Assembly (NCBI GenBank): GCA_964424335.1
Contig: CAYRIY010000004.1
Location: 9,068-73,067 of the forward strand
DNA length: 64,000 nucleotides
Direction of reading: 5' to 3'
DNA from: an uncultured Clostridia bacterium
GTDB taxonomy: Bacteria; Bacillota; Limnochordia; DTU080; RSA5
The translations under genes and the position numbers were made by a program. Shown here piece by piece: positions 5,429 to 53,115 of the stretch (positions within the stretch are counted from its first letter, which is position 1; the number at the start of each line of letters is the position of its first letter). The notes below the pieces were generated by a model. It was not told the origin of the DNA, made no database searches, and saw nothing but the letters and a program-made list of their open reading frames with translations.

Positions 5429-5529
5429 CAATTCGATTTGGCAACAGGCGCGTGGAGTTAGTCCACGTCGGTTACTTTGTGAACAGCGATCGTGAGATCA
5501 TGGCTTTTTTAGAAAACGAGGTGGCGTGT

Positions 5530-6621: not shown

Positions 6622-6631
6622 GGGCGGCTAG

Positions 6632-7465
6632 GTGGTGCAAAAGCGATTGCCTGAAGTGATTCGATTACCTGTGTTGGACCACCGCGAAGTGGCAGAGGGC
6701 CATTGGGAGCTCATCCTTCCCCTCGAAGGGGGACTCGCCGACGTCGTACCCGGGCAGTTCGTCAACGTCCTCTGCCGGGACATCGCAGCTTACGACCCCC
6801 TGCTCAGACGGCCCTTCAGCGTTTACTGGGCGAACGGCGATAGGTTTGGTGTGATGTACCGAGTGGTTGGCCGGGGGACGCGCCTGCTTTCTCGCCTCAA
6901 GGCTGGCGATACGGTCGACTTGGTAGGACCGCTCGGCCGTGGATTCGATTGGCTGCCGTTTAAGGATCGCCAAGGTGGTAGGCTCGTCCTCGTCGGAGGC
7001 GGGGTAGGCGTACCGCCGATCTACTTCCTGTCCGAGCGGCTCAAGGCAGATGGCTTGAGCCATACGGCGCTCGTTGGATTTGCGGGCGCTAAGCAGATTG
7101 TGGCCGTCGATCGGTGGCGCGCTGGAGGCGTCGAGCCCCGCATCGCCACGGTCGACGGCTCCGTCGGTCACCCTGGTTTCGTCACGGACCTCCTGCAGGC
7201 GGCGCTCGAGCAGCGGGACTTCGGCGCCCCGGTTATGGGCGTGTTTGCATGCGGCCCTGCTGCGATGCTTGCCGCCGTTTCCGAAATCTGCAAACGCCAC
7301 GAGGTGCCCTGTCAGGTCGCGCTGGAAGAATGGATGGGATGCGGCCTCGGGGTTTGTCTGAGCTGCGTTTGCAAAGTCCAAGGAGAAACTGGCGAGCCCG
7401 AGTGGGCTAGAGTGTGCCGAGAGGGGCCGGTCTTTGACGGCGCGAAGGTGGTGTGGGGCGGATGA
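6632..7465 (+). CDS. pyrK: Dihydroorotate dehydrogenase electron-transfer subunit (PyrK)
   Basis: FNR-like fold with a C-terminal Fe-S motif CGLGVCLSCVC. Confidence 0.85.
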   Translation: MVQKRLPEVIRLPVLDHREVAEGHWELILPLEGGLADVVPGQFVNVLCRDIAAYDPLLRRPFSVYWANGDRFGVMYRVVGRGTRLLSRLKAGDTVDLVGPLGRGFDWLPFKDRQGGRLVLVGGGVGVPPIYFLSERLKADGLSHTALVGFAGAKQIVAVDRWRAGGVEPRIATVDGSVGHPGFVTDLLQAALEQRDFGAPVMGVFACGPAAMLAAVSEICKRHEVPCQVALEEWMGCGLGVCLSCVCKVQGETGEPEWARVCREGPVFDGAKVVWGG

Positions 7466-9143: not shown

Positions 9144-9668
9144 ATGTCCGAATCGACCGAGCCTCGCCCCACGATCGGGGTCGTTCTTGGCAGCAAATCC
9201 GATCTTCCCGTCGTCGCCAAAGGCCTCGAGATCTTCGATGAGCTTCGCATCTCGTACGAAGTTCGCATTCTTTCCGCACACCGCACGCCCGACGAGGCGG
9301 TCGCGTACGCGAGGAGCGCAGCCGATCGCGGGTTGCACGCGATCGTTGCCGCTGCCGGCCGCGCCGCGCACCTGCCCGGCGTGCTGGCAAGCCACACTTT
9401 GGTGCCCGTGATCGGCGTGCCGATCGGCGGGGGGCCACTTGCCGGCGTCGACGCCTTGTACTCGATCGTGCAAATGCCAAGCGGCGTGCCGGTCGCTTCG
9501 ATGGGCATCGACGGCGCCGCCAATGCCGCGCTGTACGCGGCCCAAATCCTCGGTCTGCACGATGCGGCCGTACGGGAGCGCCTTGCGGCCTGGCGGCAGG
9601 GGCGGGCGGAAGTTTCGCTCAACGACGACGCCAAGGCGCGCGATCATGGCTGGCGTTCACTGCTTTAA
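9144..9668 (+). CDS. purE: N5-carboxyaminoimidazole ribonucleotide mutase / AIR carboxylase catalytic subunit
   Basis: PTIGVVLGSKSDLPV...VIGVPIGGGPLAGVDALYSIVQMPSGVPVASMGIDGAANAA matches PurE. It is preceded by the RBS AAAGGAGAA. Confidence 0.9.
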   Translation: MSESTEPRPTIGVVLGSKSDLPVVAKGLEIFDELRISYEVRILSAHRTPDEAVAYARSAADRGLHAIVAAAGRAAHLPGVLASHTLVPVIGVPIGGGPLAGVDALYSIVQMPSGVPVASMGIDGAANAALYAAQILGLHDAAVRERLAAWRQGRAEVSLNDDAKARDHGWRSLL

Positions 9669-9671
9669 AGG

Positions 9672-11045
9672 TCAATGCGCTCTACTTGCCAGCGCGCCCT
9701 TCGCTCGGGGCGCGCTGGGGAGTTGAAACCCGCCTACCGTAAAGCAATACCGCACGAGGCGGCGGCGCGCGTGTTTGCGAATGGCGGGCTCGTCGAAGAC
9801 CATGGGCTTTGCATTCAGCTCCAAGATCCACGGGTGGCCGCTTCGATCGAGCGCCACATCCATCGAGAGTTCCCCGTGCGTCCCGCCCGTCGCGGCATCG
9901 AAGGCCGCAGCCGCCGTGACGATCGCATTTTCTAGATTTCTGACGACTTGATCGACGCGGTCAGCGCCCTTTAGCACGCGGCGGAGGAGCGGGATGAGTT
10001 TGGCCCTCGATCCTCCCCGAGGACGGTGGGTTGTGATCTGCCGCGGTCCTGCGATGCGCGCGGCCATCCCCGTCACGGTCCACCCTTTGACCGGATCGTT
10101 TTGGACCAATGCTCGGATGTCAAAGGGACGCCCGTGGTAACGCAGGAGAGGGATGGCCTGTTGTATCAAGTAGCGCCTTCCGGCCTGAAATCGGTCCAAC
10201 TGGGCCGAGAATGCGCCGATGTCGTAGTACGTCGCGGCCCTGATCCGCCCTTTTCCCAAGGTCGATCGCCAGAGGATTCGGCCGTTTGGGTGCAGATCGA
10301 TGCGGGCCGTTCCATTGCCAAGGCTGCCGCCGGCCCGTTTCATGTACACTTCGTGGTGCTTGCGCAAAAACTCCATCAAAGACGTTGCATCCCGATACAT
10401 GAGCGTCTCGGGGAGGTGCGCCTTGACGGCTTCGTGGTCCTTGAGGATGTTGTGCACTTCCCACTTGTCGAGCAATTTCGGGTTGAAAAAGTGGACGTCC
10501 GACTCTTCAATAAACCGCTTGCGGGCTGCGTCGACGCTCGCCCGCCGCTCAGCGTTGCGGTTGGGCACTCGGTTGTAGATGACGTGGGGAAATGGGAAGC
10601 GGCCGCGAACCCAGGCGCCGCTGCGGCCGCTGATCGTATACCCCGCGATGGTCCGATCACTCCAATTCACGCCTTCCGGCGTAAATACGTACGCGATCGC
10701 TCCCATCTCCTTGGCGACGAGGATCAAACGGCGAAACTGCCCGGAGCTCGCCGCAAACCGGCGCTTAGGATTCTTGCGTGAGGACGATGTGAAGATTGCG
10801 ATGACGGGGCCAAGTGACAAGCCGTGCTCGCTCGTACGCACGGAGACTCGCCAGCGACCCGGTAGGTGTAGGCCTTTTCGCTGAGAACTCACCAAGGCCA
10901 CGCGGGCTCCCGATGTCTTGAGTTCGATGGGCGTCAGACCGATCGTCACGCTGCCGGCCCGCCTGACCGCTTGGATCGCGTCGGATGTGGATTTCAGCTT
11001 TAGCATCCGACCGGGGCCGTTTTTTATTTCAAATTGCATGGGCAA
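9672..11045 (-). CDS. YheC/YheD-family ATP-grasp protein (paralog 1) with a ~90-aa N-terminal extension
   Basis: Shows the family signatures LGPVIAIF, VHFFNP..DKW, YMKRAGGSLGNG, PFDIRALVQ, TGMAARIAG, SMDVALDRSGHPWILELNAKP. It is the last gene of the minus-strand block. Confidence 0.7.
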   Translation of the reverse strand: MPMQFEIKNGPGRMLKLKSTSDAIQAVRRAGSVTIGLTPIELKTSGARVALVSSQRKGLHLPGRWRVSVRTSEHGLSLGPVIAIFTSSSRKNPKRRFAASSGQFRRLILVAKEMGAIAYVFTPEGVNWSDRTIAGYTISGRSGAWVRGRFPFPHVIYNRVPNRNAERRASVDAARKRFIEESDVHFFNPKLLDKWEVHNILKDHEAVKAHLPETLMYRDATSLMEFLRKHHEVYMKRAGGSLGNGTARIDLHPNGRILWRSTLGKGRIRAATYYDIGAFSAQLDRFQAGRRYLIQQAIPLLRYHGRPFDIRALVQNDPVKGWTVTGMAARIAGPRQITTHRPRGGSRAKLIPLLRRVLKGADRVDQVVRNLENAIVTAAAAFDAATGGTHGELSMDVALDRSGHPWILELNAKPMVFDEPAIRKHARRRLVRYCFTVGGFQLPSAPRAKGALASRAH

Positions 11046-11078
11046 TTCCTCCCGAAAGGCGCGTGCGCTTTTTCGTGT

Positions 11079-12425
11079 TCAAAACCCGGCAATGTAGTTT
11101 GCATAGGCCATAGGCCGGTGGAATGAGCGCCACACTTGGCGCTTGGGGCCTGCGTCCGTAATCTTTCGGAACGGCTTGGCGTTCACTTCGATCAGCCAAA
11201 CTTGCCCTTTCCGATCGACGCCAAGGTCGAGGCCGACCTCGCCGAGCGGGCCGTCGAGCACTTCTTCAAGGGCGGTCACGATCTCGAGCGATGCGGTGCG
11301 GATCTTGGCCGCCACGCGCCGACCGTTCCTCTTGAATCGCTTGCGCAAGACGTAGGCAAGACCAAAGGCCGTTCCACCACGGCTCAGATTGGACGTGACC
11401 CTGCCTTGCGGAGCCACTCTGGCGTACGTCTTGGTCCGCGCCCACTCGCCATCGCCCGTCTTTTGCATGAGAATTCGCACGTCGAACGGGGCGCCGCCGA
11501 AGGTAGCAAGGTGAAGATCTTGCTGGACGATGTATCGCCGCCCGCGTTGAATGCGAGTAATTCCTTTGTATAGTGCATCAAACCGAGTCGTCCCATGGAT
11601 TCTGCGACCGTGCCGCCACTCGTATCCCGTGTGCGTCCGTCGCACCCGCACGACGCCTTTGCCTTGGCTGCCTTCGGTAGGCTTTACGTAGACGGAGCTG
11701 TGTTGGTCGAGAAACGCCTGCAGACTGGCGGGCCCGGTCAGTTGCCGCGTCTCGGGGATGTACCGAACCAGGCGTTCGTGCCGGGACATGCGCTGATAGA
11801 TCGACCACTTGTCAAAAAATCCTTCATTGAAATAATGGACGTCGGGGATGGCCTGCAAAACTGCTTTCGCACGTTGCGTGCTGGCACGCCGCTCCCAACT
11901 GCGCGCTTGCACGCGATCGTACACCACGTCGGGGAGGGGAAGGCGCCTTTTGACCCAACGCTTTCCGGAGCGAACGTACCCCTCCACGTAATCGGCGCCT
12001 TCCTCGATTCCGTCCGGGGCCGCGACGAACGCCACCATGCCCAAAGCCCTGCCATGGGCGATCAGGTGTTTGAGGTCCCCAGTGCGGACACCAAAGAGCG
12101 CCCGCCTTCCGCTGCGCCTCTTTTTGGCTGCAAAGATCGCGACGATCGGGCCGAGGCAGAGCGCCTGGCGCTCTGGCTCCCATCGAATGCGGAGCGTTTG
12201 CGGGAGCGAGAGGTAAAGGTCACTTGCGACCTTGGGACTGATGGCGACGACGTCAGAGCCTCGTTTGTTCGAAACAGGCACGGAGACGCTCTTAGCCCCA
12301 ACTTTTAGCGTCGCTTGATCAAGGCGCGGGGCGCCAAGCGACTCGAGAAGCGCCTCTGAAACGGCGATCCCGTCGACCCCCTCTTGGGCCCGCGTCAACT
12401 TGACCTTTGCGCTCTTGTATGGCAT
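11079..12425 (-). CDS. YheC/YheD-family ATP-grasp protein (paralog 2) with a related N-terminal extension
   Basis: LGPIVAIFAA, VHYFNEGFFDKW, VYVKPTEGSQGKG, PFDVRILMQ, GLDLGVDRKGQVWLIEVNAKP. The N-terminal ~95 aa parallel those of paralog 1. Confidence 0.7.
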   Translation of the reverse strand: MPYKSAKVKLTRAQEGVDGIAVSEALLESLGAPRLDQATLKVGAKSVSVPVSNKRGSDVVAISPKVASDLYLSLPQTLRIRWEPERQALCLGPIVAIFAAKKRRSGRRALFGVRTGDLKHLIAHGRALGMVAFVAAPDGIEEGADYVEGYVRSGKRWVKRRLPLPDVVYDRVQARSWERRASTQRAKAVLQAIPDVHYFNEGFFDKWSIYQRMSRHERLVRYIPETRQLTGPASLQAFLDQHSSVYVKPTEGSQGKGVVRVRRTHTGYEWRHGRRIHGTTRFDALYKGITRIQRGRRYIVQQDLHLATFGGAPFDVRILMQKTGDGEWARTKTYARVAPQGRVTSNLSRGGTAFGLAYVLRKRFKRNGRRVAAKIRTASLEIVTALEEVLDGPLGEVGLDLGVDRKGQVWLIEVNAKPFRKITDAGPKRQVWRSFHRPMAYANYIAGF

Positions 12426-12505
12426 CGACTTCTTCCCTTTCTCGGAGCTGCTCTTTAGGCCGTAGGGCCCGGGAAAGGCCCGCCGATCGGCGTGGCCGCC
12501 CCACG

Positions 12506-13897
12506 TCAGCGCCGCTTACGCTTTTGGGGTCGTCGGCGGACCAATCCCCACCGCAACTTTAGGTCGCGGTTTTCGCTCCATTCTTTACCCTCACGCACCC
12601 ATTCAGGAATGACTTGCAGATGCTCTTCCATCCTCGAATAGTCCGGTAGGGTCTCAAGGTCGGACCAGATTGCCTCAAAGGCAGGGCGCATGACCTCTTT
12701 GTCGGATCGGTAAAATGCGCGGCAAATCTCGTTATGCGCAAACATATCGAGACGCAGGCGCTCGTAGTTCTCCGCGACCAGCTTTGCCAGGCATGCGATG
12801 GCGTGGGCGAAGTCGGGCGCTACGATCCAACTCGACGGGACTCGGTACTCAAAGCCGTGGCGCTGCCAGCGAAACTCGCCGAGGTATCCGTAGCGGGGGC
12901 GCCGCCGACGGGCGCGCTTTGGATCCTCGAGCATCGCCACGGGGAGCGCGAGGTAGTTGTCGAGCGCCCGGAGCAATTCCGTCGTGAGCGGCACGTCGCT
13001 GAAGTGGATGTGGCCGCCGATCGGGTAGCTGCGCACGGGGAGGCTTCCCGCCTGCCAACTCGAATCTTTGGGCGCGCGGCGAGCGGCCCTGCGGAGCAGA
13101 TCCTTGATGTTTGAAACGAGCACGACCGGGTCGGACGAAGGCGAAGGGCGCACCTCGACGATGGGCTTTGCCCCCCGGCGATATCGACTGCCCTGCTGGT
13201 CGTAACCGACCCGGCCGTGCCTGCTGAAATATCGAGACGCGTAAACGATCCCTTTGCCTCGGCGCATGATGAACTCGATGTCGGCGCCGAGCGTGACGGG
13301 CTTGCGGGCAAAGTCGAATCGGGAGCGCCGACGAGCGACGAAATGGGAGGCGGAGCGGGCATACAACCTGCCCGTCGTCGGTGTGAGCTCCGGGGTGGGA
13401 TCGACCCGCGTCGGCGCCGCTTCGTCCTTGCTGAGCGAGATGACGTCCACCGAGCCGAAATGCAGCCCGAGGGCGTAAATGCAGCGGACGGCCATCGCCC
13501 GGACCGCCCGCATTCGCTTTGAACCACCGTGTATCCGCTTGAGCTTCTTTCCGCTTCGCCGGTAAAGGCCAAGGACTCGCAAGTCGCATACGTGCACTCT
13601 GTAGCGGCCCTTTCGTCCATAGTACCGGGTGCGGATCCCGTGTGCGCGCAGGCGCTCAACGACTCTTTCTTTGTCTTGAGCGGCGCGGAGCGCTTCGGGC
13701 GGGTTGAGGACCCACTCGGCGCCGATGGGATCGAAATCCGTGGCGCCCCAGGACATGACGGCATCCCACGGTCCGGGTAGGTACTCGGAGTCAAACGTGA
13801 TTTTCCCTTCATTATCGTTGGGAAACTTCAGCCGCTTCGGTTTTCCTTTGGGCGGATGAATGGCAAGGAGGTTCACCGCGTCCGGGCCTCCTTCCAA
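12506..13897 (-). CDS. Uncharacterised ~460-aa protein (paralog A): degenerate ATP-grasp-like N-terminal half plus a C-terminal domain with GADIEF / GYDQQ / GGHIHFS motifs
   Basis: Shares YxLGLHFGSVDV, GAD[IP]EF, IVYASRY, GYD.Q, SNI..ALRRAA, GGHIHFS, LRALD.YL, RRR.RYG, FEYRV.SW with the ORF at 15382..16770. The N-terminal YRVHVCDLRVLGL...MAVRCIYALGLHFGSVDV resembles the ATP-grasp central and C-terminal sheets. No confident family assignment is possible from sequence alone. Confidence 0.6.
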   Translation of the reverse strand: MEGGPDAVNLLAIHPPKGKPKRLKFPNDNEGKITFDSEYLPGPWDAVMSWGATDFDPIGAEWVLNPPEALRAAQDKERVVERLRAHGIRTRYYGRKGRYRVHVCDLRVLGLYRRSGKKLKRIHGGSKRMRAVRAMAVRCIYALGLHFGSVDVISLSKDEAAPTRVDPTPELTPTTGRLYARSASHFVARRRSRFDFARKPVTLGADIEFIMRRGKGIVYASRYFSRHGRVGYDQQGSRYRRGAKPIVEVRPSPSSDPVVLVSNIKDLLRRAARRAPKDSSWQAGSLPVRSYPIGGHIHFSDVPLTTELLRALDNYLALPVAMLEDPKRARRRRPRYGYLGEFRWQRHGFEYRVPSSWIVAPDFAHAIACLAKLVAENYERLRLDMFAHNEICRAFYRSDKEVMRPAFEAIWSDLETLPDYSRMEEHLQVIPEWVREGKEWSENRDLKLRWGLVRRRPQKRKRR

Positions 13898-13969
13898 ACG
13901 ATCCGCCAGGTCGAGTCCAAACGAGGAGTTACGTCACATAAACGAGGGTAGCGGTCATCACAACACGGT

Positions 13970-14170
13970 CTAGCAGCGCATCGTGAGTATGAGTACAAAG
14001 ATGAGTCCCCCGAGGAGCACGACGTCGAACGGATTGGGAACGATCAGCACCTTGAGGAGTTCGATGCAGATCATTGCGACAATGACGACGAACGTCACGT
14101 CGAGGTTTCGCATTTTGCGCGACATGGATCGTTTCACCCTCACCGTGCAGGCTCGCTCGCCTGCTTTCAA
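13970..14170 (-). CDS. Possible small two-TM membrane protein (66 aa)
   Basis: Lies in the gap between two block genes on the same strand. It has hydrophobic segments VTFVVIVAMICIELLKVLIV and VVLLGGLIFVLILTM, and local GC content is lower. The coding evidence is weak. Confidence 0.3.
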   Translation of the reverse strand: MKAGERACTVRVKRSMSRKMRNLDVTFVVIVAMICIELLKVLIVPNPFDVVLLGGLIFVLILTMRC

Positions 14171-14268
14171 AGGAGTCGTGGCGTCAGTTCTTTCCCGCTA
14201 TCCTACGAGCCTCGGCGGAGGCTGGGAATAGTACTGAGTTCCCTAGTTCCCAGGTGGTAAGCGCATCC

Positions 14269-15363
14269 CTAGGAGTCTGTTGATTTCTTGCTCAAGTACC
14301 AAGCGTATTGAACGACACGGATGCGCGACGTCCGCCACGATTTCGTCAGGCGCGCTCTGGAGAAGAGCGCCCGTCCGGGTTGCCGGTTGACCTCGATGAT
14401 CCACAGTTTTCCTGTGCGGTCGAGGCCAAGATCGAGGCCGAGTTCGCCAAGGGTTGGGTGGGCGCTGGACATTTGGGCGGCGCATTTCAGCGCAAGGGCC
14501 CGAACCATTGCAGCGAGCGTCTTTGCTTTCGGGGCGCGGGGAAGACCGCGCACGAGGCGCTGCAGCGTCATTGCGGTTCCCCCTGCGTGCAGGTTGGAGA
14601 CAAACCCTCCGGGACGCCCGACACGCGCGCCGATCGCCGAGACGCGCCAGCGGCCTTCAATGTCACGTTGGACGATCGCACGTATGTCGACGGCAGACCG
14701 CCCTCGACGCATCAGGTCGAGGTCCTGCTGTACCAAGTATTCGTCAGGCGGTTGCCCGTCGACGGCAAATGCGACGAGCTGCGCTGCGTCTTTTAGGGAT
14801 CGCTTGACGGCAGCGCCTGATTCGGATCGTCTCGCCGCTTTCCAACCCGACTCGGATCGCACCGCCTTGACGATCCCCTTGCCCTGGCGGCCGCGCACCG
14901 GCTTGATGTAAAGCGCTCGGTGGGACTCGGCGATCCGCTCGATGGCATCGGCGCTCAGGGGTAAGGTTTCGGGGAGGTGAAGGGCGAGCTTGGGATCTTG
15001 AGCAAGGAGCGCATGGACCTCGAGTTTGTCCCCGAAGTCCGGGTTGAACACGGCAACCCCATATTCGCTCTCCAGGCGCCCAAGCGCGAGCCTGCACTTT
15101 TCGGCCTTCTCTTTGCCTAGGCCCCAAAGACGGTCGTGGACCACGTGAGGAAATCCTCGTTGAACGACTTTCCATCCCCCGTTCGTCGGGACGTACGCTT
15201 TGACGCGCCTGCGTTCCCAGTCGATGTCGAGGGGGGAGAAGACGTACCCTTCCATGTGGTGCCGTCTGGCGATCCGGATGAGTCCTCGCAGGTACGAGGT
15301 TTGCTCTCCAAACAGCCGCTTGTGAAACCGGCGCGCTGCAATTGCAAACACGGTGCGGGCCAT
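14269..15363 (-). CDS. YheC/YheD-family ATP-grasp protein (paralog 3, no N-terminal extension)
   Basis: VAVFNPDFGDKLEVH, LYIKPVRGRQGKG, AVDIRAIVQ, NLHAGGTA, ELGLDLGLDRTGKLWIIEVNRQP. Confidence 0.7.
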   Translation of the reverse strand: MARTVFAIAARRFHKRLFGEQTSYLRGLIRIARRHHMEGYVFSPLDIDWERRRVKAYVPTNGGWKVVQRGFPHVVHDRLWGLGKEKAEKCRLALGRLESEYGVAVFNPDFGDKLEVHALLAQDPKLALHLPETLPLSADAIERIAESHRALYIKPVRGRQGKGIVKAVRSESGWKAARRSESGAAVKRSLKDAAQLVAFAVDGQPPDEYLVQQDLDLMRRGRSAVDIRAIVQRDIEGRWRVSAIGARVGRPGGFVSNLHAGGTAMTLQRLVRGLPRAPKAKTLAAMVRALALKCAAQMSSAHPTLGELGLDLGLDRTGKLWIIEVNRQPGRALFSRARLTKSWRTSRIRVVQYAWYLSKKSTDS

Positions 15364-15381
15364 GGCAACCGCCTCCCTTAG

Positions 15382-16770
15382 TCAGATCTCCCAAGCCGCC
15401 TTGATGTCCCGATCCTCGTGCCACTCCTCGCCGGCCTCGATCATTTTGGTGAAGTAGGATAGCTCCGCTCGGTATTTGCGCCCTGTTTCGGTCCGAAGCA
15501 CGTTGTGGATCAGGCGCGGGTAAAGTGTGCGGAATCGCCCTTTTTTGGATAGATAAAACTCCTTGCTCGCCTGCGTCGAGGAGAGGTAGTTCCGATTCAA
15601 CCGCGGCCACTCGGCGGCCACCGTCTTGGCTAGGGCAAGCGTCGCCGTCGTGGCTTCAGGCGAGACGAGCCAGCTTGGCAGCACCCGGTACTCAAACCCG
15701 CCGTGTTCCTTGCGGCGAAAGTCGCCCGCACGGCCATACCGGCGCCTGCGTCTTTTGGCCCGGTGTCTTTGCTCGAGCAGCATGATCACAACGCCCAAAT
15801 AGCTGTCGAGGGCCCGCAGAAACGGGGTGGTCAGCGGCGCTCCACTGAAATGGATGTGGCCGCCGGTCGGGTACTTTCCCATGGGGTAGCTGCCGGCGAG
15901 CCACGAAACGCCCTTTGTCGGCAGGAGCTCCGCCGCTCGCCGCAATGCCGTCTCGATGTTTGCGACAAGCGTGAATGGGGAAGGGCTCGGATTTGGCCGC
16001 AGCTCCGCCAAGGGAAAGACCGACCCCCGGTTCGCGCGGCTTTGTCGGTCGTATCCCACGAGTCCGGAATGGGTCACATACCGGGACGCGTATACGATTT
16101 TCCCGCCCGCTTTGACCAGCGCAAACTCGGGATCGGCGCCAAGCGCCGCCTCGCTGGAAGGCTCCGGGGGCTCAACCCAGGATTCGGCCATGTCGGCAAT
16201 GCTCGCGCCATAAGCCCGGGCGAGGTCATCGTCCGCTGAAGGTTGAGCGTCGACTCGACCGACGTACCAGCGTCCGGATGGATGCACCATGACGTCGACC
16301 GACCCAAAGTGCAGTCCGAGGACGTATACGGCACGGCATGCCCCCTCGGCAATTCTTTGGTACTTCCAGCGCGAAATCGAGCGCATGGCTCCGCGGGCGT
16401 CATCGACCGCCAGGATGCGCAGGTCGGCCACGTGGACGCGCACAAGGGCGTACTCATCCCTCAATGGCGGCATGACCGGGCGCACAGCGTCGCGGGGCAG
16501 GCGCTCGGGATCCACGGGGATGCCATGCAGGTGAAGGAGGAGGGAGGTCTTCTCTGGTGAGTCGGCGATCCTTACCGCATTGACCGGATTGATCACGACG
16601 GCTGCCTTGGCAAGGGATGCGCTTTTTCCCCAACAAATGACCACGTCCGACTCGTTCGAAGACGCGCGGGCGCGCCGCTCGACGGTAAATCCCCGCTTGT
16701 CGAGCGCGTCGGCTACGGCCAAGACCGCGCTCGAGCGAACTTCTTTCGGGGCTAACAGTATCGCCTTCAT
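15382..16770 (-). CDS. Uncharacterised ~460-aa protein (paralog B of the 12506..13897 family)
   Basis: The N-terminus (VINPVNAVRIADSPEKTSLLLHLHGIPV; LVRVHVADLRILAV; AVYVLGLHFGSVDV) looks like an ATP-grasp N-terminal/central part. The C-terminal domain carries GADPEF, IVYASRY, GYDRQ, GGHIHFS, RRRRRYG, FEYRVLPSW. Confidence 0.6.
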   Translation of the reverse strand: MKAILLAPKEVRSSAVLAVADALDKRGFTVERRARASSNESDVVICWGKSASLAKAAVVINPVNAVRIADSPEKTSLLLHLHGIPVDPERLPRDAVRPVMPPLRDEYALVRVHVADLRILAVDDARGAMRSISRWKYQRIAEGACRAVYVLGLHFGSVDVMVHPSGRWYVGRVDAQPSADDDLARAYGASIADMAESWVEPPEPSSEAALGADPEFALVKAGGKIVYASRYVTHSGLVGYDRQSRANRGSVFPLAELRPNPSPSPFTLVANIETALRRAAELLPTKGVSWLAGSYPMGKYPTGGHIHFSGAPLTTPFLRALDSYLGVVIMLLEQRHRAKRRRRRYGRAGDFRRKEHGGFEYRVLPSWLVSPEATTATLALAKTVAAEWPRLNRNYLSSTQASKEFYLSKKGRFRTLYPRLIHNVLRTETGRKYRAELSYFTKMIEAGEEWHEDRDIKAAWEI

Positions 16771-16811
16771 AAGGACAAATCGCCATCCTGTAGTAGATCT
16801 TGCAAGATCGA

Positions 16812-17690
16812 TTACTGAACGTTCATGATTCGTCGGCGCATGGAGTCCATGACGCTTCCCGCAATGTCAGCGCCCGTGGCCGCTTCGACGTGTTGAAAGC
16901 CGGGGCAAACGTTGACGTCGATCACCAAAGGGCCCTCGGCCGTTTCGAGGATGTCGACAGCGGCAAAATCGGCTCCGACGGCGCGGGCCGCACGTACTGC
17001 CGCGTCCGCCGTCTCAATCTCTGCTTTGACAGGCATTGCTCGCGCGCCGAGCGACAGGTTGGCGCGCCATTCGCCCGGAGGAGGCGTCTTAGCCACTGCC
17101 GCAAGGACGCTTCCATCCAAGATGACGAGTCGCAGCTCCCGCTTTGCGCCGCTTACGAAGGACTGAACCAACATCGGCGATCCGTTCTCCTTTAGCAGGC
17201 GGAGCAGCTCTCGGGGCCCCGCTGCCTTGGAGACGAGAGCGCCTTTTCCGCCGATCAAGGGCTTGACGACGACCGGGTAGGAAACATGGCGCAGGTGGTC
17301 GACGGTGAGAGCGCTCATGATTCGGCTCTCCGGCTGAGGCACCCCGTGTTCAGACAGTGCGAGCGCGGCGAGCGCCTTGTCTCGGCCGTTTCGGACCGCC
17401 GCGGGTCCGTTTATCGTGGGCACGCCGACACGAGCGAGGACTTCGAGGACTCGAAGGCCCGCGAGGAGCGCGTCTTGGTCAATCCGCCCGATGGCGCCGA
17501 TCATGCTTGGATCTTGGCGGATCAGGCCCTTGGAGATTCCTTCGAACCGGGCGTGCTGCACGTCGAAGGCCCAGCGCATGGGATCGATCCGCACGAGGGA
17601 GATGCCCCGTGCCCGCGCGGCCCTGTGGAGCGCCTTCATCTCCCATGTCACGAAGTTGTCCCTGGTGATGACGGCCACGGCCCCTCTCAC
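16812..17690 (-). CDS. RimK-like ATP-grasp alpha-L-glutamate/peptide ligase
   Basis: A GTG start at 17690 overlaps the upstream glycosyltransferase stop (GTGA). The N-terminus VAVITRDNFVTWEMKALHRAARARGISLVRIDP parallels RimK MKIAILSRD...ILDP. Also present are PVVVKPLIGGKG, LVQSFV, ELRLVILDG, GADFAAVDIL. The longer ORF from 17786 is rejected as an antisense extension. Confidence 0.75.
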   Translation of the reverse strand: MRGAVAVITRDNFVTWEMKALHRAARARGISLVRIDPMRWAFDVQHARFEGISKGLIRQDPSMIGAIGRIDQDALLAGLRVLEVLARVGVPTINGPAAVRNGRDKALAALALSEHGVPQPESRIMSALTVDHLRHVSYPVVVKPLIGGKGALVSKAAGPRELLRLLKENGSPMLVQSFVSGAKRELRLVILDGSVLAAVAKTPPPGEWRANLSLGARAMPVKAEIETADAAVRAARAVGADFAAVDILETAEGPLVIDVNVCPGFQHVEAATGADIAGSVMDSMRRRIMNVQ

Positions 17691-18682
17691 GAAGGCCACG
17701 TCCTTATCGCATCGCGGTACACTTCGACCACCGCCTCGGCCATTTTCTCGATGGGAAACGTTCGGCAGGCGAACTCGCGACTCCAAGCGGCAAGGCGGCC
17801 GCGAAACGCCGCGTCTTGGGTGAGTCGGAGAATGTCCGTTCGGATGGTTTCCGATCGGGGCAACACACCGTCGTAACCGCTAAAGGAAGGGAACGCCTGG
17901 CCGTCGTAGCGATCGGGCGTGACCGGGCCCCCGTATTTGGCGCCCAAGACGAGGCCGATTGCGCCGCACGCGAGCCCTTCGCGAATCGCTCGGCCGGTGC
18001 CGCAGACGATGTGGCTCTCGGCCAACAGTTTTGAGACGTCGTCCACCCATCCGAGGGCGGTCAAACGAGGTCCGACCGGACGGTCGTTTGATGCGACCGC
18101 GAGGTGGGCGTGGGGAATGGCTTCGGTCGCTCTGATCAGTTCGTTTAAGCCGCTTCTCTTGGTTTCGTCAACCCTGCCGACATAGGCGATGCGAAGGCTG
18201 GGGCCCTTTGCGCCCGGAGAGAACCGCTCGGTGTCAACTCCGTTTTGGATGATCACCGAGGCGATGGAGTGCTTCATTAGGTCCTGCGCGACATTGGGCC
18301 CCACGGCAATGCACCGATCGACCTTGGCGACGTCCGGAAATCGACCCGCCACGCCCAAACCGTGACATGTGATCACGCACGGAACGCCGTGCGTCTCGCG
18401 CAGGCGAAGGAGACACGGGACGGCGACTGACGAATGGCCGTGCGCAATGTCGGGGGCGAAGGCCTCGGCCATTTTGAAGAACTGGCTCGATTTCACCGCA
18501 TGCCGACACGGAATCGCGTGTTGGTGCAACATGTCGGCGCAGGCCTTGACTGCGAGGGGCAATGATCGTCCGAGCGCAATCACGCAGACGTCGTGGCCCA
18601 TGTTGCCAAGAGCCCTGGCAAGCTCGACGAGGTGCGTCGTCTGGCCGCTTTGATGGAACTTAGCCGTGAGCAAAATGCGCAA
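17687..18682 (-). CDS. GT-B fold glycosyltransferase (family 1 / GT4-like)
   Basis: The N-terminus MRILLTAKFHQSGQTTHLVELARALGNMGHDVCVIA is typical of GT4 enzymes. The C-terminal half has the E-x7-E-like region (GRVDETKRSGLNELIRA ... GLACGAIGLV). Confidence 0.7.
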   Translation of the reverse strand: MRILLTAKFHQSGQTTHLVELARALGNMGHDVCVIALGRSLPLAVKACADMLHQHAIPCRHAVKSSQFFKMAEAFAPDIAHGHSSVAVPCLLRLRETHGVPCVITCHGLGVAGRFPDVAKVDRCIAVGPNVAQDLMKHSIASVIIQNGVDTERFSPGAKGPSLRIAYVGRVDETKRSGLNELIRATEAIPHAHLAVASNDRPVGPRLTALGWVDDVSKLLAESHIVCGTGRAIREGLACGAIGLVLGAKYGGPVTPDRYDGQAFPSFSGYDGVLPRSETIRTDILRLTQDAAFRGRLAAWSREFACRTFPIEKMAEAVVEVYRDAIRTWPS

Positions 18683-18724
18683 AGCCGCTCGAGTCCCCCT
18701 TCATCGAAACGCCGACGATGAGAT

Positions 18725-19888
18725 TCATCCTATGGCAATGGGGCGCGCTCCGTTCTCCTTTGGTCTCCACGCGTATTTGAACAAGCGGCGAGCGGCGAGA
18801 GTACGGATTTCATCTTCGTCAAAGGGAAAGGGCTTGGCGTTCATCTCGAGGATCGCAAGGCGCCCGTCCGCTGTCGGAGCGATGTCTGCCGAGAACTCGA
18901 AAAACTCTTCTCCGCGGCTTTCTTCGATGGCTAAAGCCGCACGGCAGACGAGCGATTCGACCGCGCCGCGGTCGATGCCGCACATATCGGCGACCTCGGC
19001 GAAGGGAACAATATGGCCGCCGCGAACCGTGTGAGTCGACACGTGACCGGGAGGCGCCGCGCGGCCTGTTACGCCCGTCAGGCTCCAGCCGGCCTCGGTA
19101 CGTTGGACGAGCGCGCGCAGGTCGACTCGGCAGCCGTCGATCGACGGGAGATCGACGCCCTCTTGAGCAATGTACGGCGTGGAACGGACGAGGTCGCCTA
19201 AGAGCTGAGAAAGCGTTCGGCGTCCGCACAAGGTCTGTAAGGGGGGATCCGGAGTTGCCCGGTTCGACGTGATCAAATAATTTCCGCGGCCTTGAGCCGT
19301 ACCTGGTTCGATTCTGACGATGCCTCGCCCAAGGCTGCCGTCCTTGGGCTTGAGGTAGACGACGCCCCACGATCGCAAGGCGCTCATCGCGTCGTCCACG
19401 TCTTGAACAACCGCAAATCGGGGGGTCGCAACTTGCTTCGCGCCCAATGCGGATAGCGCCTCGTCTTTGGCCAAAAAGCCGGGATTAAAAAGGAGGCGAT
19501 TTATTCGAATTTGATCTAGGAGCCGCTGCATGGTCGGGCGCCTTTCGAGCGATCGGCGAGCCAGTCGGTTGTAGATGGCGTTTGGCAGCGGCGCCGTCAT
19601 CCGCTTCCACTCGGATCCGTCGAAATGCCATCCCGCCACCGAGTTTTCGCGCACGTTTATGCCGTTGGGGGTGAAAAACAAGGTGCGTCCCCACGTGGGG
19701 CCGAGGAGGCCTAGGTGCGCGTACGTGTGCTCAGGTGGGCGCCCAAGCTCAAACTCCCGTTCCGATAGTGGATCGATCAATACGCCAAGCGCGCGCTCAC
19801 AGTAAGTCACGGGAAAATCAACCTCCACCAAGCATTGATATGCCGGCGGGGCCCACCGAGGTGACCTGGCTTTTTTTAGTCCAGTCAT
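18725..19888 (-). CDS. YheC/YheD-family ATP-grasp protein (paralog 4)
   Basis: LLFNPGFLAKD, VYLKPKDGSLGRG, RVDLRALVQ, GVTGRAAPPG, EFSADIAPTADGRLAILEMNAKP. Confidence 0.7.
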   Translation of the reverse strand: MTGLKKARSPRWAPPAYQCLVEVDFPVTYCERALGVLIDPLSEREFELGRPPEHTYAHLGLLGPTWGRTLFFTPNGINVRENSVAGWHFDGSEWKRMTAPLPNAIYNRLARRSLERRPTMQRLLDQIRINRLLFNPGFLAKDEALSALGAKQVATPRFAVVQDVDDAMSALRSWGVVYLKPKDGSLGRGIVRIEPGTAQGRGNYLITSNRATPDPPLQTLCGRRTLSQLLGDLVRSTPYIAQEGVDLPSIDGCRVDLRALVQRTEAGWSLTGVTGRAAPPGHVSTHTVRGGHIVPFAEVADMCGIDRGAVESLVCRAALAIEESRGEEFFEFSADIAPTADGRLAILEMNAKPFPFDEDEIRTLAARRLFKYAWRPKENGARPIAIG

Positions 19889-19909
19889 TCGATTGTTATC
19901 TACAGTGCT

Positions 19910-21031
19910 TCATACGACGCTCTCGGCAACGCCTTGTGCGACGCCGCTCTTTTTGTACGCAAGGTGTCTTGCAAACTCGGCCGGAGAGCGATCCGCCATG
20001 CTTGCAGCCTCCGTCTCGCCGGCCCGGTGAAAGGAGATCCGTCCGGTCCGGGAGTTTGCCTCCAGGAGCCAGCATCTGTAGTCTTTATCGATTGCAAAAT
20101 CGATGCCGAGTTCTGCTACGAGGCGGGTCGTCTTGCTCGTCGCCTCCGCGGTTTCGATGGCGAGGCGCTTGATGCTCTCGATGATCTCTGCGACTTGATG
20201 ATCATCCGCGCCGGTTTCGGCCAAGATTTCGTGCAATTTGCGTGCGCTTCCCCCGGCGTGGATGTTTGTGACTTTGCTCCGTCGACCGCCAAGCCGTGCG
20301 ACGACTCCGGTGACGCGCCATTCTCCGTCGCCATGACGCTGAACGAGCGCCCGGATGTCGAAAGGCCTGCCGTCGTACTTTAGGACGTCGATCGCCATCT
20401 GGACGATGCGCGGCCTTCCGCCGCCGCAGCGTGCGCTCACGGCGCCGATCGTGCGGACCATGCCCGATCGGACGCCGCGCCCTCCATGAATCCGGTACCG
20501 ATACCCTCCGGGCACGCGCTTGACCCACGCCACGCCCTTTCCCTGACCGCCGTTGATCGGTTTTACGTATACTTCACCGTACTGTTTGAGCATCGAGTAG
20601 AGCGTCGTTTTCGTCAGCACGCGGGTTGGGGGGAGGATCGGGGCGAGGGTCGGGTTTTTCCGCCATACCTTGTACATGCCCCATTTGCCCGTGAGGCGGG
20701 TGTTGAACATCGGTATCTTCATGCGCGCAAAACGACGTCGGACCGAGGGAATGCCGGCGAGGTCCGCTCTGCCTTTGGGCGACACGCGGTCGAAGACGGC
20801 GTCGGGAAATCGGTAGATTCCTTTTCGCCATCGCCCGTTCACCATTGTCCAGCCTCGAATCCGCCTGCGCGACCAGAGGACGTCGCGCGGAGAGAAGATG
20901 AACACTTCGACCCCGATGGTCCTTGCTTCCTTGATCAACCTGCGAAAAAACGTGGTCTGCTCCTGATAGGGACGGGTCTTGGATGAACGCCTGGCACAAA
21001 GGACACCTAAATAGACGTCGGGTTGTGACAA
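19910..21031 (-). CDS. YheC/YheD-family ATP-grasp protein (paralog 5), first gene of the block
   Basis: A TTG start at 21031 is preceded by AAGGGGAG; the ORF as tracked from 21223 is probably over-extended. Signatures: YLGVL, MFNTRLTGKW, VYVKPINGGQGKG, PFDIRALVQ, NIHAGGSA, ELGIDFAIDKDYRCWLLEANSR. Confidence 0.65.
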   Translation of the reverse strand: MSQPDVYLGVLCARRSSKTRPYQEQTTFFRRLIKEARTIGVEVFIFSPRDVLWSRRRIRGWTMVNGRWRKGIYRFPDAVFDRVSPKGRADLAGIPSVRRRFARMKIPMFNTRLTGKWGMYKVWRKNPTLAPILPPTRVLTKTTLYSMLKQYGEVYVKPINGGQGKGVAWVKRVPGGYRYRIHGGRGVRSGMVRTIGAVSARCGGGRPRIVQMAIDVLKYDGRPFDIRALVQRHGDGEWRVTGVVARLGGRRSKVTNIHAGGSARKLHEILAETGADDHQVAEIIESIKRLAIETAEATSKTTRLVAELGIDFAIDKDYRCWLLEANSRTGRISFHRAGETEAASMADRSPAEFARHLAYKKSGVAQGVAESVV

Positions 21032-21247
21032 ACTGGAGCTCCCCTTGAGGCGGGCAGCGCCCTGGCGACACGAAACCTTTTTCGAAAACACGCGGCGAGG
21101 GCAGGGCGCGGCGAGCACGCGTTTTGGCTGTGGCAGGAGCAATGTACGCTTGAGCGAAGGCTGTTGGATACAACCCGGCGCTCCTATTTTCGAGAAGTTC
21201 GACTTCCGAACAATGGGGCGCAAACAACGTTAATGTTCGTCTTTTGC

Positions 21248-21276
21248 TTGACGCATACCGGACAACGTGCTAACAT
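21248..21276 (+). promoter_or_regulatory. Candidate sigma-A-type promoter for purB and downstream genes (TTGACG, 17-nt spacer, TAACAT)
   Basis: The motif sits ~95 nt upstream of purB in the divergent intergenic region shared with the minus-strand block. It is flanked by two inverted ACGAACATT(A/C)AAC PurBox-like motifs at 21229-21240 and 21298-21310. Confidence 0.3.
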
Positions 21277-21368
21277 TGGGCCGTATCGCCACGAAAACAC
21301 GAACATTCAACCGGGACCTTACGTCCCTCGTCACGTGAGCGAGCTGGGCCCGGTGAGGAGGTAGACCT

Positions 21369-22763
21369 GTGGAGCGCAACGTGTTCTCCTCCATCAGTCC
21401 ACTCGACCATCGCTATTACGTCAGCTCGCCCGAGCTGTTTGACCGTTTGTCACAATACTTGTCCGAAGAAGCCACGATTGCATATCAGGCCCGGGTCGAG
21501 GCCGCGCTCGTCAAGGCGCTGGTCCGCAAGGGGATTTGTCCTCAGTCTGTGAGCGACGAGGTGGAGGCGGCGATCAGAGCCGTTCGTCCCGACGAGGTCT
21601 ACGAGGAAGAGCGCAAGACTCACCACAACATCCGAGCGCTCGTCAATGTCATCCGCTCCAAGGTCTCAGACGAGGCCAAGCCTTTCGTTCACTTCACCGC
21701 CACGTCCATGGACATCACGGACACAGCCCGATCGCTTCAGTACCGCGACGTGACCGAGCACGTACTGCTCCCGCAGCTCAAAGAGCTGATGAACGTGTTG
21801 ATCGCGCTCGCAAGACGAGAGGCGGACCGCGTCCAAGTGGGCCGGACACACGGTCAACACGCCGTGCCGATCACCTTTGGCTTTGCCGTGGCGGAGTACG
21901 TGAGCCGCCTTGGCGGTCGCATCGAGCTGATCGCACGGAGCGCGGCGGCGCTAAGAGGCAAGATGGCCGGGGCGGTCGGAGCGTACAACGCCTCGCGGCT
22001 CTTTTTTGACGACCCGGAGGCGTTTGAGGCCGATGTCCTCGGAGAACTTGGAATGGAAGCCGCCGATCACGCGACGCAGATCGTCGAACCCGAGTACGTC
22101 GCGGATTTCATCCATGCGATCGTCAGCGCATTTGGCGTTCTCGCCAACTTCGCAGATGACATCCGCCACTTGCAGCGCACCGAGATCGGAGAAGTGGGCG
22201 AAGCGTTCGACGTCCACCAAGTCGGATCGTCGACGATGCCTCACAAGCGAAATCCTTGGAACTACGAGCACGTGAAGAGTTTGTGGAAGACGTTCGCACC
22301 GAGGATGCAGACGATCTACCTCGATCAGATCTCCGAGCACCAGCGGGACCTTACCAATTCGGCGTCGGCCAGATTCACGGCCGAGCTGATTGCGGGCTTC
22401 GCGGCGGCCGTCGACCGGTTGACCCGGGTGACCAAAAAACTCGTGGTCGACCATGGTCGTATGGAGCAAAACTTCCAAAGCACCCAAGGGTACGTCATCG
22501 CGGAGCCGCTCTACATTCTCCTCGCCGCGTGCGGCCATCCCGATGCACACGAAGCGGTGCGCAAACTCACCCTCAAGTCAGAGCAAAACGAAGGCTCCCT
22601 CTACGACTTGGCGAAAGCGGACCCGGAGTTGCGGCCGTACGTAGAGCGTTTCACGCCCGAACAGGCGCGGGTGCTGCAGGACCCCAGAGAGTACGTGGGA
22701 ATCGCGGCGAGTAAAGCGCGGAAAGTCTGCGACCGGTGGGAAGCCCGGATGGCAAGCATCTAG
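21369..22763 (+). CDS. purB: Adenylosuccinate lyase
   Basis: SPLDHRY (compare E. coli PurB SPVDGRY) and the fumarase/lyase signature region GSSTMPHKRNP. Confidence 0.9.
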   Translation: MERNVFSSISPLDHRYYVSSPELFDRLSQYLSEEATIAYQARVEAALVKALVRKGICPQSVSDEVEAAIRAVRPDEVYEEERKTHHNIRALVNVIRSKVSDEAKPFVHFTATSMDITDTARSLQYRDVTEHVLLPQLKELMNVLIALARREADRVQVGRTHGQHAVPITFGFAVAEYVSRLGGRIELIARSAAALRGKMAGAVGAYNASRLFFDDPEAFEADVLGELGMEAADHATQIVEPEYVADFIHAIVSAFGVLANFADDIRHLQRTEIGEVGEAFDVHQVGSSTMPHKRNPWNYEHVKSLWKTFAPRMQTIYLDQISEHQRDLTNSASARFTAELIAGFAAAVDRLTRVTKKLVVDHGRMEQNFQSTQGYVIAEPLYILLAACGHPDAHEAVRKLTLKSEQNEGSLYDLAKADPELRPYVERFTPEQARVLQDPREYVGIAASKARKVCDRWEARMASI

Positions 22764-22823
22764 GCCTCTTACATGGCGCGAAGTTCAGGCGCCCACAGCG
22801 AACAACAAAGGAGCGCTGCCAGC

Positions 22824-23075
22824 ATGACGTATCGAGCGAAAGTTTACGTGACGTTGAAAGAAGGCGTGCTCGACCCGCAGGGAAACGCGGTTCGACAAGG
22901 ATTGAACTCGTTGGGTCACTCGGTGCAGGACGTTCGGGTCGGACGGTTTATCGTGCTCACCCTAGAGGCCGAGGATGAAGCGTCGGCCAAGGCCCAGGTC
23001 GAGGAGATGTGCCGCCGCCTCCTGGCAAACCCTGTAATCGAAGATTACACGTTCGATACGCCCGAGGAGGTGTAG
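22824..23075 (+). CDS. purS: FGAM synthase PurS subunit
   Basis: The ATG at 22824 is preceded by AAAGGAG. MTYRAKVYVTLKEGVLDPQG...VGRFIVLTLEA matches PurS. Confidence 0.85.
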   Translation: MTYRAKVYVTLKEGVLDPQGNAVRQGLNSLGHSVQDVRVGRFIVLTLEAEDEASAKAQVEEMCRRLLANPVIEDYTFDTPEEV

Positions 23076-47252: not shown

Positions 47253-47283
47253 TTCCCAGCACTCGATTCCTCGCTCGGCAGAA

Positions 47284-49715: not shown

Positions 49716-49719
49716 GCGT

Positions 49720-53112: not shown

Positions 53113-53115
53113 TAC

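Follow-up and report, generated by a model that had tools for sequence, protein, structure and literature searches.

A ten-gene block of amide ligases between purE and purB in a Limnochordia bacterium, with a core that is usually linked to cotE in other Bacillota

The window analyzed here is a 64,000-nucleotide (nt) stretch of one contig (CAYRIY010000004.1) from an uncultured Clostridia bacterium that is placed in the Limnochordia, and all coordinates are given in window numbering. Open reading frame (ORF) calling between purE and purB (9672-21223) found ten ORFs, all on the minus strand, which encode five YheC/D ATP-grasp ligases (Y1 to Y5), one RimK-family ligase, one GT4 glycosyltransferase, two PF14395 ligases (C1 and C2) and a 51-amino-acid (aa) membrane protein (Table 1). 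Taken together the block encodes eight amide ligases of three kinds, and these are probably active rather than duplicated spare copies because the catalytic residues are intact and the paralogs are old. On balance, and with modest confidence, we read the block as a lineage-specific and expanded version of a conserved, usually cotE-linked cluster of PF14395 and YheC/D genes that would build a peptide, isopeptide or sugar elaboration on the spore coat.

A sequence-only reading of this DNA had placed ten co-directional minus-strand genes at these positions, and all ten ORFs were found. The assignments of the five YheC/D proteins, the RimK-like protein and the GT4 protein in that reading were upheld by searches with Pfam and NCBIfam hidden Markov models (HMMs). 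The two paralogs of about 460 aa that it left in an unassigned family are real genes, and both are members of PF14395 (COOH-NH2_lig). The small ORF is likewise a real gene, although its product has 51 aa from the ATG at 14125 and not the 66 aa first given. The spacing of 3-80 nt that had been described needs correction: the intergenic spacers within the block are 18-143 nt, and the 3-nt gap lies between the convergent stop codons of purE and Y1.

Table 1. Genes and promoter-like features of the block, in window coordinates
Feature	Position	Strand	Details
Y1, long-form YheC/D ATP-grasp ligase with N-terminal beta-rich extension	9672..11039	-	455 aa from ATG 11039; PF14398 E 5.7e-66
Y2, long-form YheC/D ATP-grasp ligase	11079..12425	-	448 aa; PF14398 E 3.6e-78
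C1, two-domain PF14395 amidoligase	12506..13876	-	456 aa from GTG 13876; PF14395 E 2e-90
Small membrane protein	13970..14125	-	51 aa, start ATG 14125
Bipartite promoter-like motif 5' of the small gene	14199..14233	-	TACTATT-N19-CGTAGGATA
Y3, short-form YheC/D ATP-grasp ligase	14269..15363	-	364 aa; PF14398 E 2.9e-66
C2, second two-domain PF14395 amidoligase	15382..16770	-	462 aa; PF14395 E 2.1e-85
RimK-family alpha-L-glutamate-type ATP-grasp ligase	16812..17690	-	292 aa, GTG start; PF08443 E 3e-26
Short GT4-type glycosyltransferase	17687..18682	-	331 aa; PF13439 E 4.4e-20
Y4, divergent short-form YheC/D ATP-grasp ligase	18725..19888	-	387-aa ORF; PF14398 E 8.3e-37
Y5, short-form YheC/D ATP-grasp ligase	19910..21031	-	373 aa from TTG 21031; PF14398 E 9e-65
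Y5 upstream region, -10-like box CGTACATTG in AGGAGC...GCTCCT inverted repeat	21140..21185	-	

A scan of one genome per species returned at least 589 stretches that carry a relative of C1, and the best 80 of these were fetched. The loci were translated as stop-to-stop ORFs and searched with the window proteins together with CotE, MutS and MiaB from two annotated loci. C1 homologs are widespread in Bacillota, and the best 80 of the at least 589 loci all come from Bacillota lineages of the spore-former type; B. subtilis, B. cereus and C. difficile were not among the PF14395 hosts found. The nearest relatives are metagenome-assembled genomes (MAGs) of Limnochordia. The ten genes are colinear between purB and purE/pyrE in locus L082 (81% identity) and are also colinear in two MAGs at ~50% protein identity, L002 (Clostridia bacterium RSA5) and L003 (Limnochordia bacterium). 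A ten-gene order that is kept in three relatives at 50-80% protein identity is far beyond chance. The sequence-only reading had proposed a comparison of gene neighborhoods, and this comparison finds the same ten-gene set together in L002, L003 and L082 rather than paralogs scattered without linkage.

In MAGs of the sister Limnochordales the same slot between purB and pyrE is filled by a smaller cluster in the order C-cotE-Y-Y, where the ligases have their best matches to C1, Y2 and Y1 and the middle gene encodes a genuine CotE (PF10628, E 8e-29). The C1-Y2-Y1 core of the window thus has both its orthology and its chromosomal slot in common with a cotE-containing cluster. Among the 80 loci of the genome scan cotE is adjacent to and co-directional with the PF14395 gene in 64, which represent several Bacillota orders. 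A PF14395 gene adjoins YheC/D genes on one strand in 38 of these 80 loci (L002-L081) and in 42 of all 85 loci fetched, and the window itself pairs the two families twice, as C1-Y2-Y1 and as C2-Y3. The order of the genes is not constant. The order cotE-Y-Y-C-Y(-Y) is found in Effusibacillus, Tumebacillus, Kyrpidia and other Alicyclobacillaceae, and in some of these loci miaB and mutS come next; cotE-C-mutS is the arrangement in Thermoactinomycetaceae, many Paenibacillus, Brevibacillus/Ammoniphilus and Tepidibacillus; and Symbiobacterium and several uncultured Clostridia have cotE-Y-Y-Y-C. Many loci are minimal and consist of cotE-C without a further ligase or a glycosyltransferase, and the flanks of the cotE-linked clusters vary between miaB/mutS and purB/pyrE. 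Since the linkage survives altered gene order and altered flanks across several orders, it reflects function beyond inherited synteny alone. The RimK-like gene, the GT4 gene, the second PF14395 gene and the 51-aa gene are limited to the window clade.

The host of the block is an endospore former, as indicated by Spo0A and by its Limnochordia relatives. Spo0A, which the sequence-only reading had also noticed, is encoded in the window at 45500-46294 on the plus strand and contains PF08769 and a receiver domain. CotE was searched for in the window with phmmer and with an HMM of 67 sequences (--max), and none was found (best E 1.1); a spore role for this particular block is therefore argued by orthology. 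CotE ORFs were collected from 66 loci (for example L005 11356-11988 and L084 7272-7847), and a median of 15 of their last 30 residues are D or E. Many of the linked CotE tails share EDLDPDL(I/V)IDDL(D/E)D.

Genes for zinc carboxypeptidase-like proteins of the AstE/AspA type (M14-like, Peptidase_M99) lie just past the PF14395 gene, on the opposite strand, in Syntrophomonadaceae. These loci (L035, L047, L054, L058, L073, L081 and L089, ~11.2-13.4 kb) are mostly without cotE. L016, L024 and L038, which do have cotE, carry carboxypeptidase homologs at other places in the locus (in L024 on the same strand). No gene of this type was found in the window. Such carboxypeptidases might remove the modification.

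All five Y proteins match PF14398 with scores of 127-263 bits against a cut-off of 26.8, and Y3 and Y5 also pass PF14397 (ATPgrasp_ST, 'sugar-transfer associated ATP-grasp'; 45.8 bits for Y3). K248, G252, G255, Q301, R317, D400 and N415 are invariant in the Y proteins, and E413 is retained in five of five. When the RimK-like protein is included, all six ATP-grasp proteins retain the ATP-binding Lys, the Gly loop, the Arg and the Asp/Glu(Asp)/Asn metal ligands. Pairwise identity among the Y proteins is 24-35%, and over the block the paralogs are 24-37% identical. At this divergence the Y and C paralogs are ancient, which points to distinct specificities.

An AlphaFold2 model of Y2 (predicted local distance difference test score, pLDDT, 92.4) consists of residues 1-98 with the pattern (beta-beta-alpha-beta)x2, then a pre-ATP-grasp domain and then the ATP-grasp body. 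Foldseek placed RimK (5zct) at the top of its matches (E 6e-12), followed by ArgX, Ddl, GshB and TTL, with DcsG also among the closest. A YheC/D profile searched against the sequences of the Protein Data Bank (PDB) gave marginal matches only, to GshB and TTLL6. The N-terminal regions of Y1 and Y2 have no significant Pfam match, and the repeated pattern in the model suggests a possible cradle-loop barrel. Four of the start codons were refined. For C1 the better start is GTG 13876. The Y1 ORF reaches to TTG 11045, but the ribosome binding site (RBS) GGGAGGAA abuts this TTG, which makes ATG 11039 the better start. Y4 may start at GTG 19810 (361 aa), and gene calls give 361 aa in L001 and 365 aa in L082. 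The TTG start of Y5 is conserved in L082, L003 and L002, and a Logan gene call agrees with it.

C1 and C2 are 37% identical to each other and consist of an N-terminal degenerate ATP-grasp-like domain and a C-terminal PF14395 COOH-NH2 ligase domain with the GCS2/GCL/PafA fold. Both the HMM match and the fold place them in PF14395, the fold being GCS2/glutamine-synthetase-like with its metal and ATP residues conserved. In the catalytic domain all 42 of the 42 invariant columns of the family alignment A1 are retained in both proteins. The N-terminal domain is different: no polar residue is conserved there in the family alignment, G144 is the sole invariant position, and in a weak profile alignment Val and Pro occupy the Glu-x-Asn metal-ligand positions of ATP-grasp enzymes. 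Because Val and Pro replace these ligands and no polar residue is conserved, the N-terminal domain is read as a degenerate ATP-grasp module that is probably non-catalytic. The sequence-only reading had counted three ATP-grasp sub-types in the block; our analysis instead distinguishes two catalytic ATP-grasp families and two GCS2-type ligases with a seemingly dead ATP-grasp domain. The N-terminal regions of C1 and C2 have no significant Pfam match, and a PDB sequence search with C1 found no relative. The structural relatives of the C proteins include the Pup ligase PafA. The C-terminal tail of C1 is basic (RRRPQKRKRR), and its close relatives end likewise. C1 and C2 do not have the single-domain architecture of the phage type, and a tblastn search with the catalytic domain of C1 against 50,697 phage records gave no match.

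The RimK-like protein contains PF08443 and Rimk_N and passes the subfamily model TIGR00768 (151 bits against a cut-off of 143), but it scores only 94 against a cut-off of 331 with the S6-ligase equivalog PRK10446. It is thus a family member and not an ortholog of the S6 ligase. Other equivalog models are also far under their cut-offs (LysX_arch 128.8 against 275.6, MptN 133 against 350 and GshB 60 against 272), which agrees with the view of the sequence-only reading that this is not a housekeeping arrangement. The closest PDB relatives are the RimK entries 7qyr, 4iwx and 5zct (E 1e-26 to 1e-24). No gene for a LysW-type carrier or partner, or for a small carrier with an acidic C-terminus, is found among the block ORFs.

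The TGA stop of the GT4 gene overlaps the GTG start of the RimK-like gene as GTGA, an overlap that had been reported before and was verified in the sequence. In the GT4 protein the PF13439 match covers the N-terminal half only; the C-terminal half has no Pfam match at E<=0.01, and relatives show a faint PF13692. When read by eye, the EX7E motif has the second Glu only (REGLACG). The family is narrow (21 homologs, each ~330 aa), and a PDB sequence search with the GT4 protein found no relative. Distant relatives at 30-40% identity stand alone in other uncultured Bacillota (L086 1933-2436, L087 2979-3771 and L088 752-2074 among them), where their neighbors are Coat_F, YtrH/YtrI, PspC or a YheC/D gene. 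No conserved GT4-RimK pair was seen in the contexts of these distant relatives, that is, outside the window clade.

The 51-aa protein has two hydrophobic helices linked by an invariant PNPFDV turn and has no significant match in Pfam. An ORF of identical length, 51 codons, is found in L082, L003 and L002, and 31 of the 51 differences between the window and L003 fall at third codon positions. The gene has the RBS GAGGGTGA upstream and was called independently by NCBI, JGI, ENA and Logan. Just two other representatives at 50% identity are found among 1.8e9 clustered proteins.

The block would be transcribed as two units, Y5-Y4-GT4-RimK-C2-Y3 and small-C1-Y2-Y1. A sigma-70 scan of the block strand found no sigma-70-like site upstream of either putative unit, and in a terminator scan terminator-like sites were not above the shuffled expectation. 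Across four genomes a CGTAnnnT box is present in seven of the eight regions upstream of Y5 and the small gene, and the eighth has TGTACTATA; the background density of this box is 0.26-0.46 per kb. A cTATt-like element is located 18-20 nt further upstream. In the four-genome alignment of the small-gene motif GTA..AT and the upstream CTA are invariant. Upstream of Y5 the CGTACATTG box and its inverted repeat are shared with L082, and the CGTAnnnT box is also found 5' of Y5 in L003 and L002. The inverted repeat, which has no Rfam match, might act as an operator or form a 5' RNA structure. A scan of the whole window with Rfam at gathering thresholds found one tRNA only, and no match of any kind in the block. 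We take the CGTAnnnT box to be one base off the CATA-type -10 boxes of the B. subtilis mother-cell sigma factors. Inspection by eye, without a formal consensus scan, showed no exact sigma-E or sigma-K consensus of the B. subtilis type. The two units would then have non-sigma-70 promoters that are read by mother-cell sigma factors, and the block proteins may resemble YheC/D in being expressed in the mother cell (sigma-E/SpoIIID) and localized to the coat.

The block is flanked by genes of nucleotide biosynthesis. Upstream of it carA, pyrK, pyrD, pyrE and purE are on the plus strand, and purB, purS, purQ, purL and purF are located downstream. The block therefore occupies a pyr/pur junction, since the pyr operon ends in pyrE and purE follows. 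It had been suggested that the block is inserted in an otherwise colinear pur operon. This is not supported, as the guanine-plus-cytosine (GC) content stays within 0.60-0.64 over the whole region without a break, the position is kept throughout the class, and purB is served by a sigma-70-like promoter of its own, TTGACG-17-TAACAT (21248-21276), with PurBox-like repeats. The position of the block is an old and conserved arrangement. A recently acquired mobile island is argued against by the flat GC content and by the conserved position in relatives at ~50% identity. Mobile-element genes, an integrase and a repeat are absent, and the PADLOC models match none of the ten block proteins.

Some features of the surroundings are recorded here in their own right. 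The purB promoter is flanked by inverted CGAACA/TGTTCG boxes that resemble the PurBox of PurR (21207-21305), and GTCAAG..GCGAAC is invariant in four genomes. In the pyr operon (5452-7465) carA is followed directly by pyrK without carB, and the carA-pyrK order is also found in L082. The pur cluster (9144-23075) has neither purK nor purC between purE and purB/purS. Elsewhere the window consists of core chromosome, with priA, def, fmt, rsmB, spo0A, rlmN, a kinase/phosphatase/penicillin-binding protein (PBP) cluster, rsgA, rpe and recG. The spo0A gene lies between rsmB (44023-45426) and rlmN (47170-48345), with a single minus-strand tRNA gene at 46776-46850, a context that differs from the spoIVB-spo0A context of Bacillus. 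Six genes in a row on the plus strand (48421-55083) encode an FhaA_N+FHA protein, an FHA protein, a PP2C phosphatase, FtsW/RodA, a PBP transpeptidase and a PASTA Ser/Thr kinase. This is the order fhaA-fhaB-pstP-rodA-pbpA-pknB that is typical of Actinobacteria; here it is found in a Limnochordia-like Bacillota genome, in the place that Bacillus fills with prpC-prkC only.

To our knowledge, YheC and YheD have been listed for about twenty years as spore-coat ATP-grasp enzymes without a known reaction, and we know of no study of PF14395 ligases in bacteria. Iyer et al. 2009 reportedly defined the YheC/D and the phiEco32-like COOH-NH2 ligase families, and the Pfam text of PF14398 is said to predict already the modification or biosynthesis of spore-wall proteins. 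Full-text literature searches found no experimental work on YheC/D chemistry or on cotE-linked amidoligases, and the literature searched holds no description of a cotE linkage of PF14395 ligases. YheD belongs to the basement layer of the coat and has no known function (PMC517825, PMC7725329, PMC7911427), and its deposition depends on SpoIVA (PMC7725329, PMC7911427), so that the description of YheC and YheD as CotE-dependent in the sequence-only reading is not supported. In B. subtilis YheD interacts strongly with itself and surrounds the forespore with shells (PMC7911427). YheC and YheD have been listed among the widely conserved coat enzymes in a study that also treats Limnochorda pilosa as a spore former (bioRxiv 10.1101/2022.02.25.481979). 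Operons that combine ATP-grasp and COOH-NH2 ligases have been discussed as successive peptide-ligation systems, citing Iyer et al. 2009, and secondary-metabolite and cell-envelope pathways are known to include operons with several such ligases (PMC4431377). The block had been called a novel peptide-tagging system, but both families are already in Pfam, from Iyer et al. 2009 as cited in PMC4431377. The families and a predicted spore role are already catalogued, and the system is a computationally predicted and uncharacterized one. What is new is how large this variant is and what it is composed of, that its PF14395 proteins have two domains, that its membrane protein is specific to the clade, and how broad the cotE linkage is. 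Of the earlier proposal, the dedicated multi-ligase unit with a link to the spore coat stands as the best reading, backed by the strong comparative evidence of the cotE context of the orthologous core, while the novelty and the insertion into pur do not.

A mechanism can be outlined from these components. ATP-grasp and GCS2/PafA-type ligases convert a carboxylate to an acyl-phosphate and then couple it to an amine. The six ATP-grasp and two GCS2/PafA-type ligases of the block would activate carboxylates in this way with ATP and join them to amines. The products, made jointly and perhaps by a complex, would be branches or cross-links of the peptide or isopeptide type on components of the spore envelope (coat). 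The likeliest targets would be tails rich in Glu and Asp on coat proteins, CotE among them. In the window clade the translationally coupled GT4 protein would add a sugar. Docking may be the role of two domains, the degenerate ATP-grasp domain in the C proteins and the beta-rich one at the N-terminus of Y1 and Y2, and the 51-aa protein may be a membrane anchor. The addition of peptides or isopeptides to coat proteins is considered most likely because the core is tied to CotE elsewhere, the CotE tails are acidic, and the characterized relatives modify protein tails or lysines.

Several points weigh against this proposal. The neighbors of the block are nucleotide-biosynthesis genes, and neither the 64-kb window nor the flanks of L002, L003 and L082 contain cotE or another coat gene. 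No substrate gene is identifiable. Acidic tails are general to CotE and so are not specific evidence. The promoter motif was picked post hoc and appears to be one base off the -10 boxes of B. subtilis sigma-E and sigma-K, so it is a lead and not proof. Finally, a RimK-like protein, a GT4 protein and multiple ligases would also fit the synthesis of a free glycopeptide or polymer.

This last point leads to the main rival explanation, in which the block makes a free polymer or glycopeptide de novo (a poly-amino acid or a teichuronopeptide-like product) that is deposited on the surface of the spore or the cell, the small protein serving as its primer or anchor. RimK-family enzymes polymerize glutamate, the GT4 and RimK-like genes are translationally coupled, Y3 and Y5 pass the sugar-transfer-associated model PF14397, and eight ligases of differing specificity would suit a stepwise synthesis; the block also encodes no substrate protein and has no cotE. 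However, it contains no gene for an exporter, a flippase, a lipid-carrier transferase or the synthesis of a sugar nucleotide. The core is linked to a protein, CotE, in most lineages and often in the minimal form cotE-C, and the closest solved relatives act on protein termini. A free surface polymer is thus possible, but we consider it rather unlikely.

It is less likely still that the block has nothing to do with sporulation and serves vegetative cells, either to make a metabolite derived from a peptide (an antibiotic, siderophore, thiol or compatible solute) or to modify the cell wall, in which case the cotE linkage would concern the orthologs only. Multi-ligase operons are indeed known from such pathways (PMC4431377), and the block is located among pyr and pur genes with no adjoining sporulation gene. 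Against this, its core is orthologous to a cotE-containing cluster at the same locus, the hosts of the best 80 of the at least 589 loci are all Bacillota of the spore-former type, the block has no tailoring, transport or resistance genes, and no sigma-70-like promoter was found upstream. That the YheC/D paralogs are inactive structural coat proteins and the block a set of scaffold genes would agree with the strong self-interaction of YheD, its forespore shells and the fact that no activity has ever been shown for it (PMC7911427), but this is very improbable, as the ATP- and Mg-binding residues are complete in the five YheC/D proteins and the RimK-like protein despite identities of 24-35%, and the degenerate domain is limited to the N-terminus of C1 and C2. 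Conventional amino-acid or cofactor biosynthesis (LysX/ArgX, GshA/GshB, MptN/CofF) or a recent mobile island, to which the weak matches of the RimK-like protein to the LysX, MptN, GshB and CofF HMMs and the break in a run of plus-strand nucleotide-biosynthesis genes might point, is effectively refuted by the low equivalog scores, the lack of a LysW-type carrier or partner gene, the even GC content, the conserved position and the lack of an integrase, a repeat or a PADLOC match.

If the modification of coat proteins is taken further, a bacterial counterpart of the tubulin code can be imagined. Specialized ATP-grasp and PafA-like ligases would write branched poly-amino-acid chains, isopeptide links and clade-specific sugars on acidic tails of the CotE type and so control coat assembly, the M14-like carboxypeptidases encoded beside the ligase in Syntrophomonadaceae would erase them, and the block would be the most elaborate set of writers yet seen. 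We regard this extension as doubtful and offer it as a speculation.

The variant of the cluster in the window is the largest known: it combines eight ligase domains with a glycosyltransferase and a membrane protein found only in this clade. The linkage to cotE, which is robust to changes in gene order, points to the neighborhood of the substrate, and cultivable carriers in which the chemistry can be tested include Paenibacillus, Thermoactinomyces, Effusibacillus, Tumebacillus and Symbiobacterium. The transglutaminase Tgl is a known source of covalent chemistry in coat maturation. If coat proteins are tagged or cross-linked in an ATP-dependent manner, this would be a second such chemistry besides Tgl and a rare bacterial case of protein polyamino-acylation by multiple enzymes.

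The block can be compared with several known systems. RimK, LysX-ArgX and TTL-TTLL are ATP-grasp enzymes that add amino acids to the acidic C-terminal tails of proteins and are the closest relatives of the Y and RimK-like proteins. RimK modifies S6, LysX and ArgX act on LysW, TTL and TTLL act on tubulin, and PafA attaches Pup to lysines of proteins. In contrast to the RimK, LysX/ArgX and TTL systems, no protein of the block reaches an equivalog model of these enzymes, and there is no S6, LysW or tubulin context. PafA/Dop and the glutamate-cysteine ligases are just 9-17% identical to the C proteins and differ in the N-terminal domain. The block is also not a pupylation system, as C1 and C2 do not belong to the PafA/Dop family and no Pup or proteasome genes are located near it.

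The phage phiEco32-type COOH-NH2 ligase type 2 shares the Pfam family of its catalytic domain with C1 and C2. The ligase of Salinivibrio phage CW02 is a Foldseek match to the C protein (E 3e-8, template-modelling score 0.62 when normalized by target length), and among the phage PHROGs there are weak matches to phrog_3815 and to a RimK-like PHROG. The phage ligases are single-domain proteins of ~230-280 aa with separate ATP-grasp proteins, whereas those of Bacillota carry a fused degenerate ATP-grasp domain. The yheC-yheD pair of B. subtilis belongs to the same PF14398 family and is likewise found in an endospore former, with a long form (as in Y1 and Y2) and a short form (as in Y3 to Y5) side by side. 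The block differs in having five paralogs instead of two and in joining them to two PF14395 ligases, a RimK-family ligase, a GT4 glycosyltransferase and a small membrane protein. A further parallel is provided by the cotE-linked PF14395 clusters, with or without YheC/D genes, of Paenibacillus, Thermoactinomycetaceae, Alicyclobacillaceae, Symbiobacterium and Limnochordales, where the core of C and long-form Y genes is orthologous to that of the window. Unlike these clusters, the window clade is without a linked cotE and has gained a second C gene, three more Y genes, the RimK-like ligase, the GT4 glycosyltransferase and the 51-aa protein.

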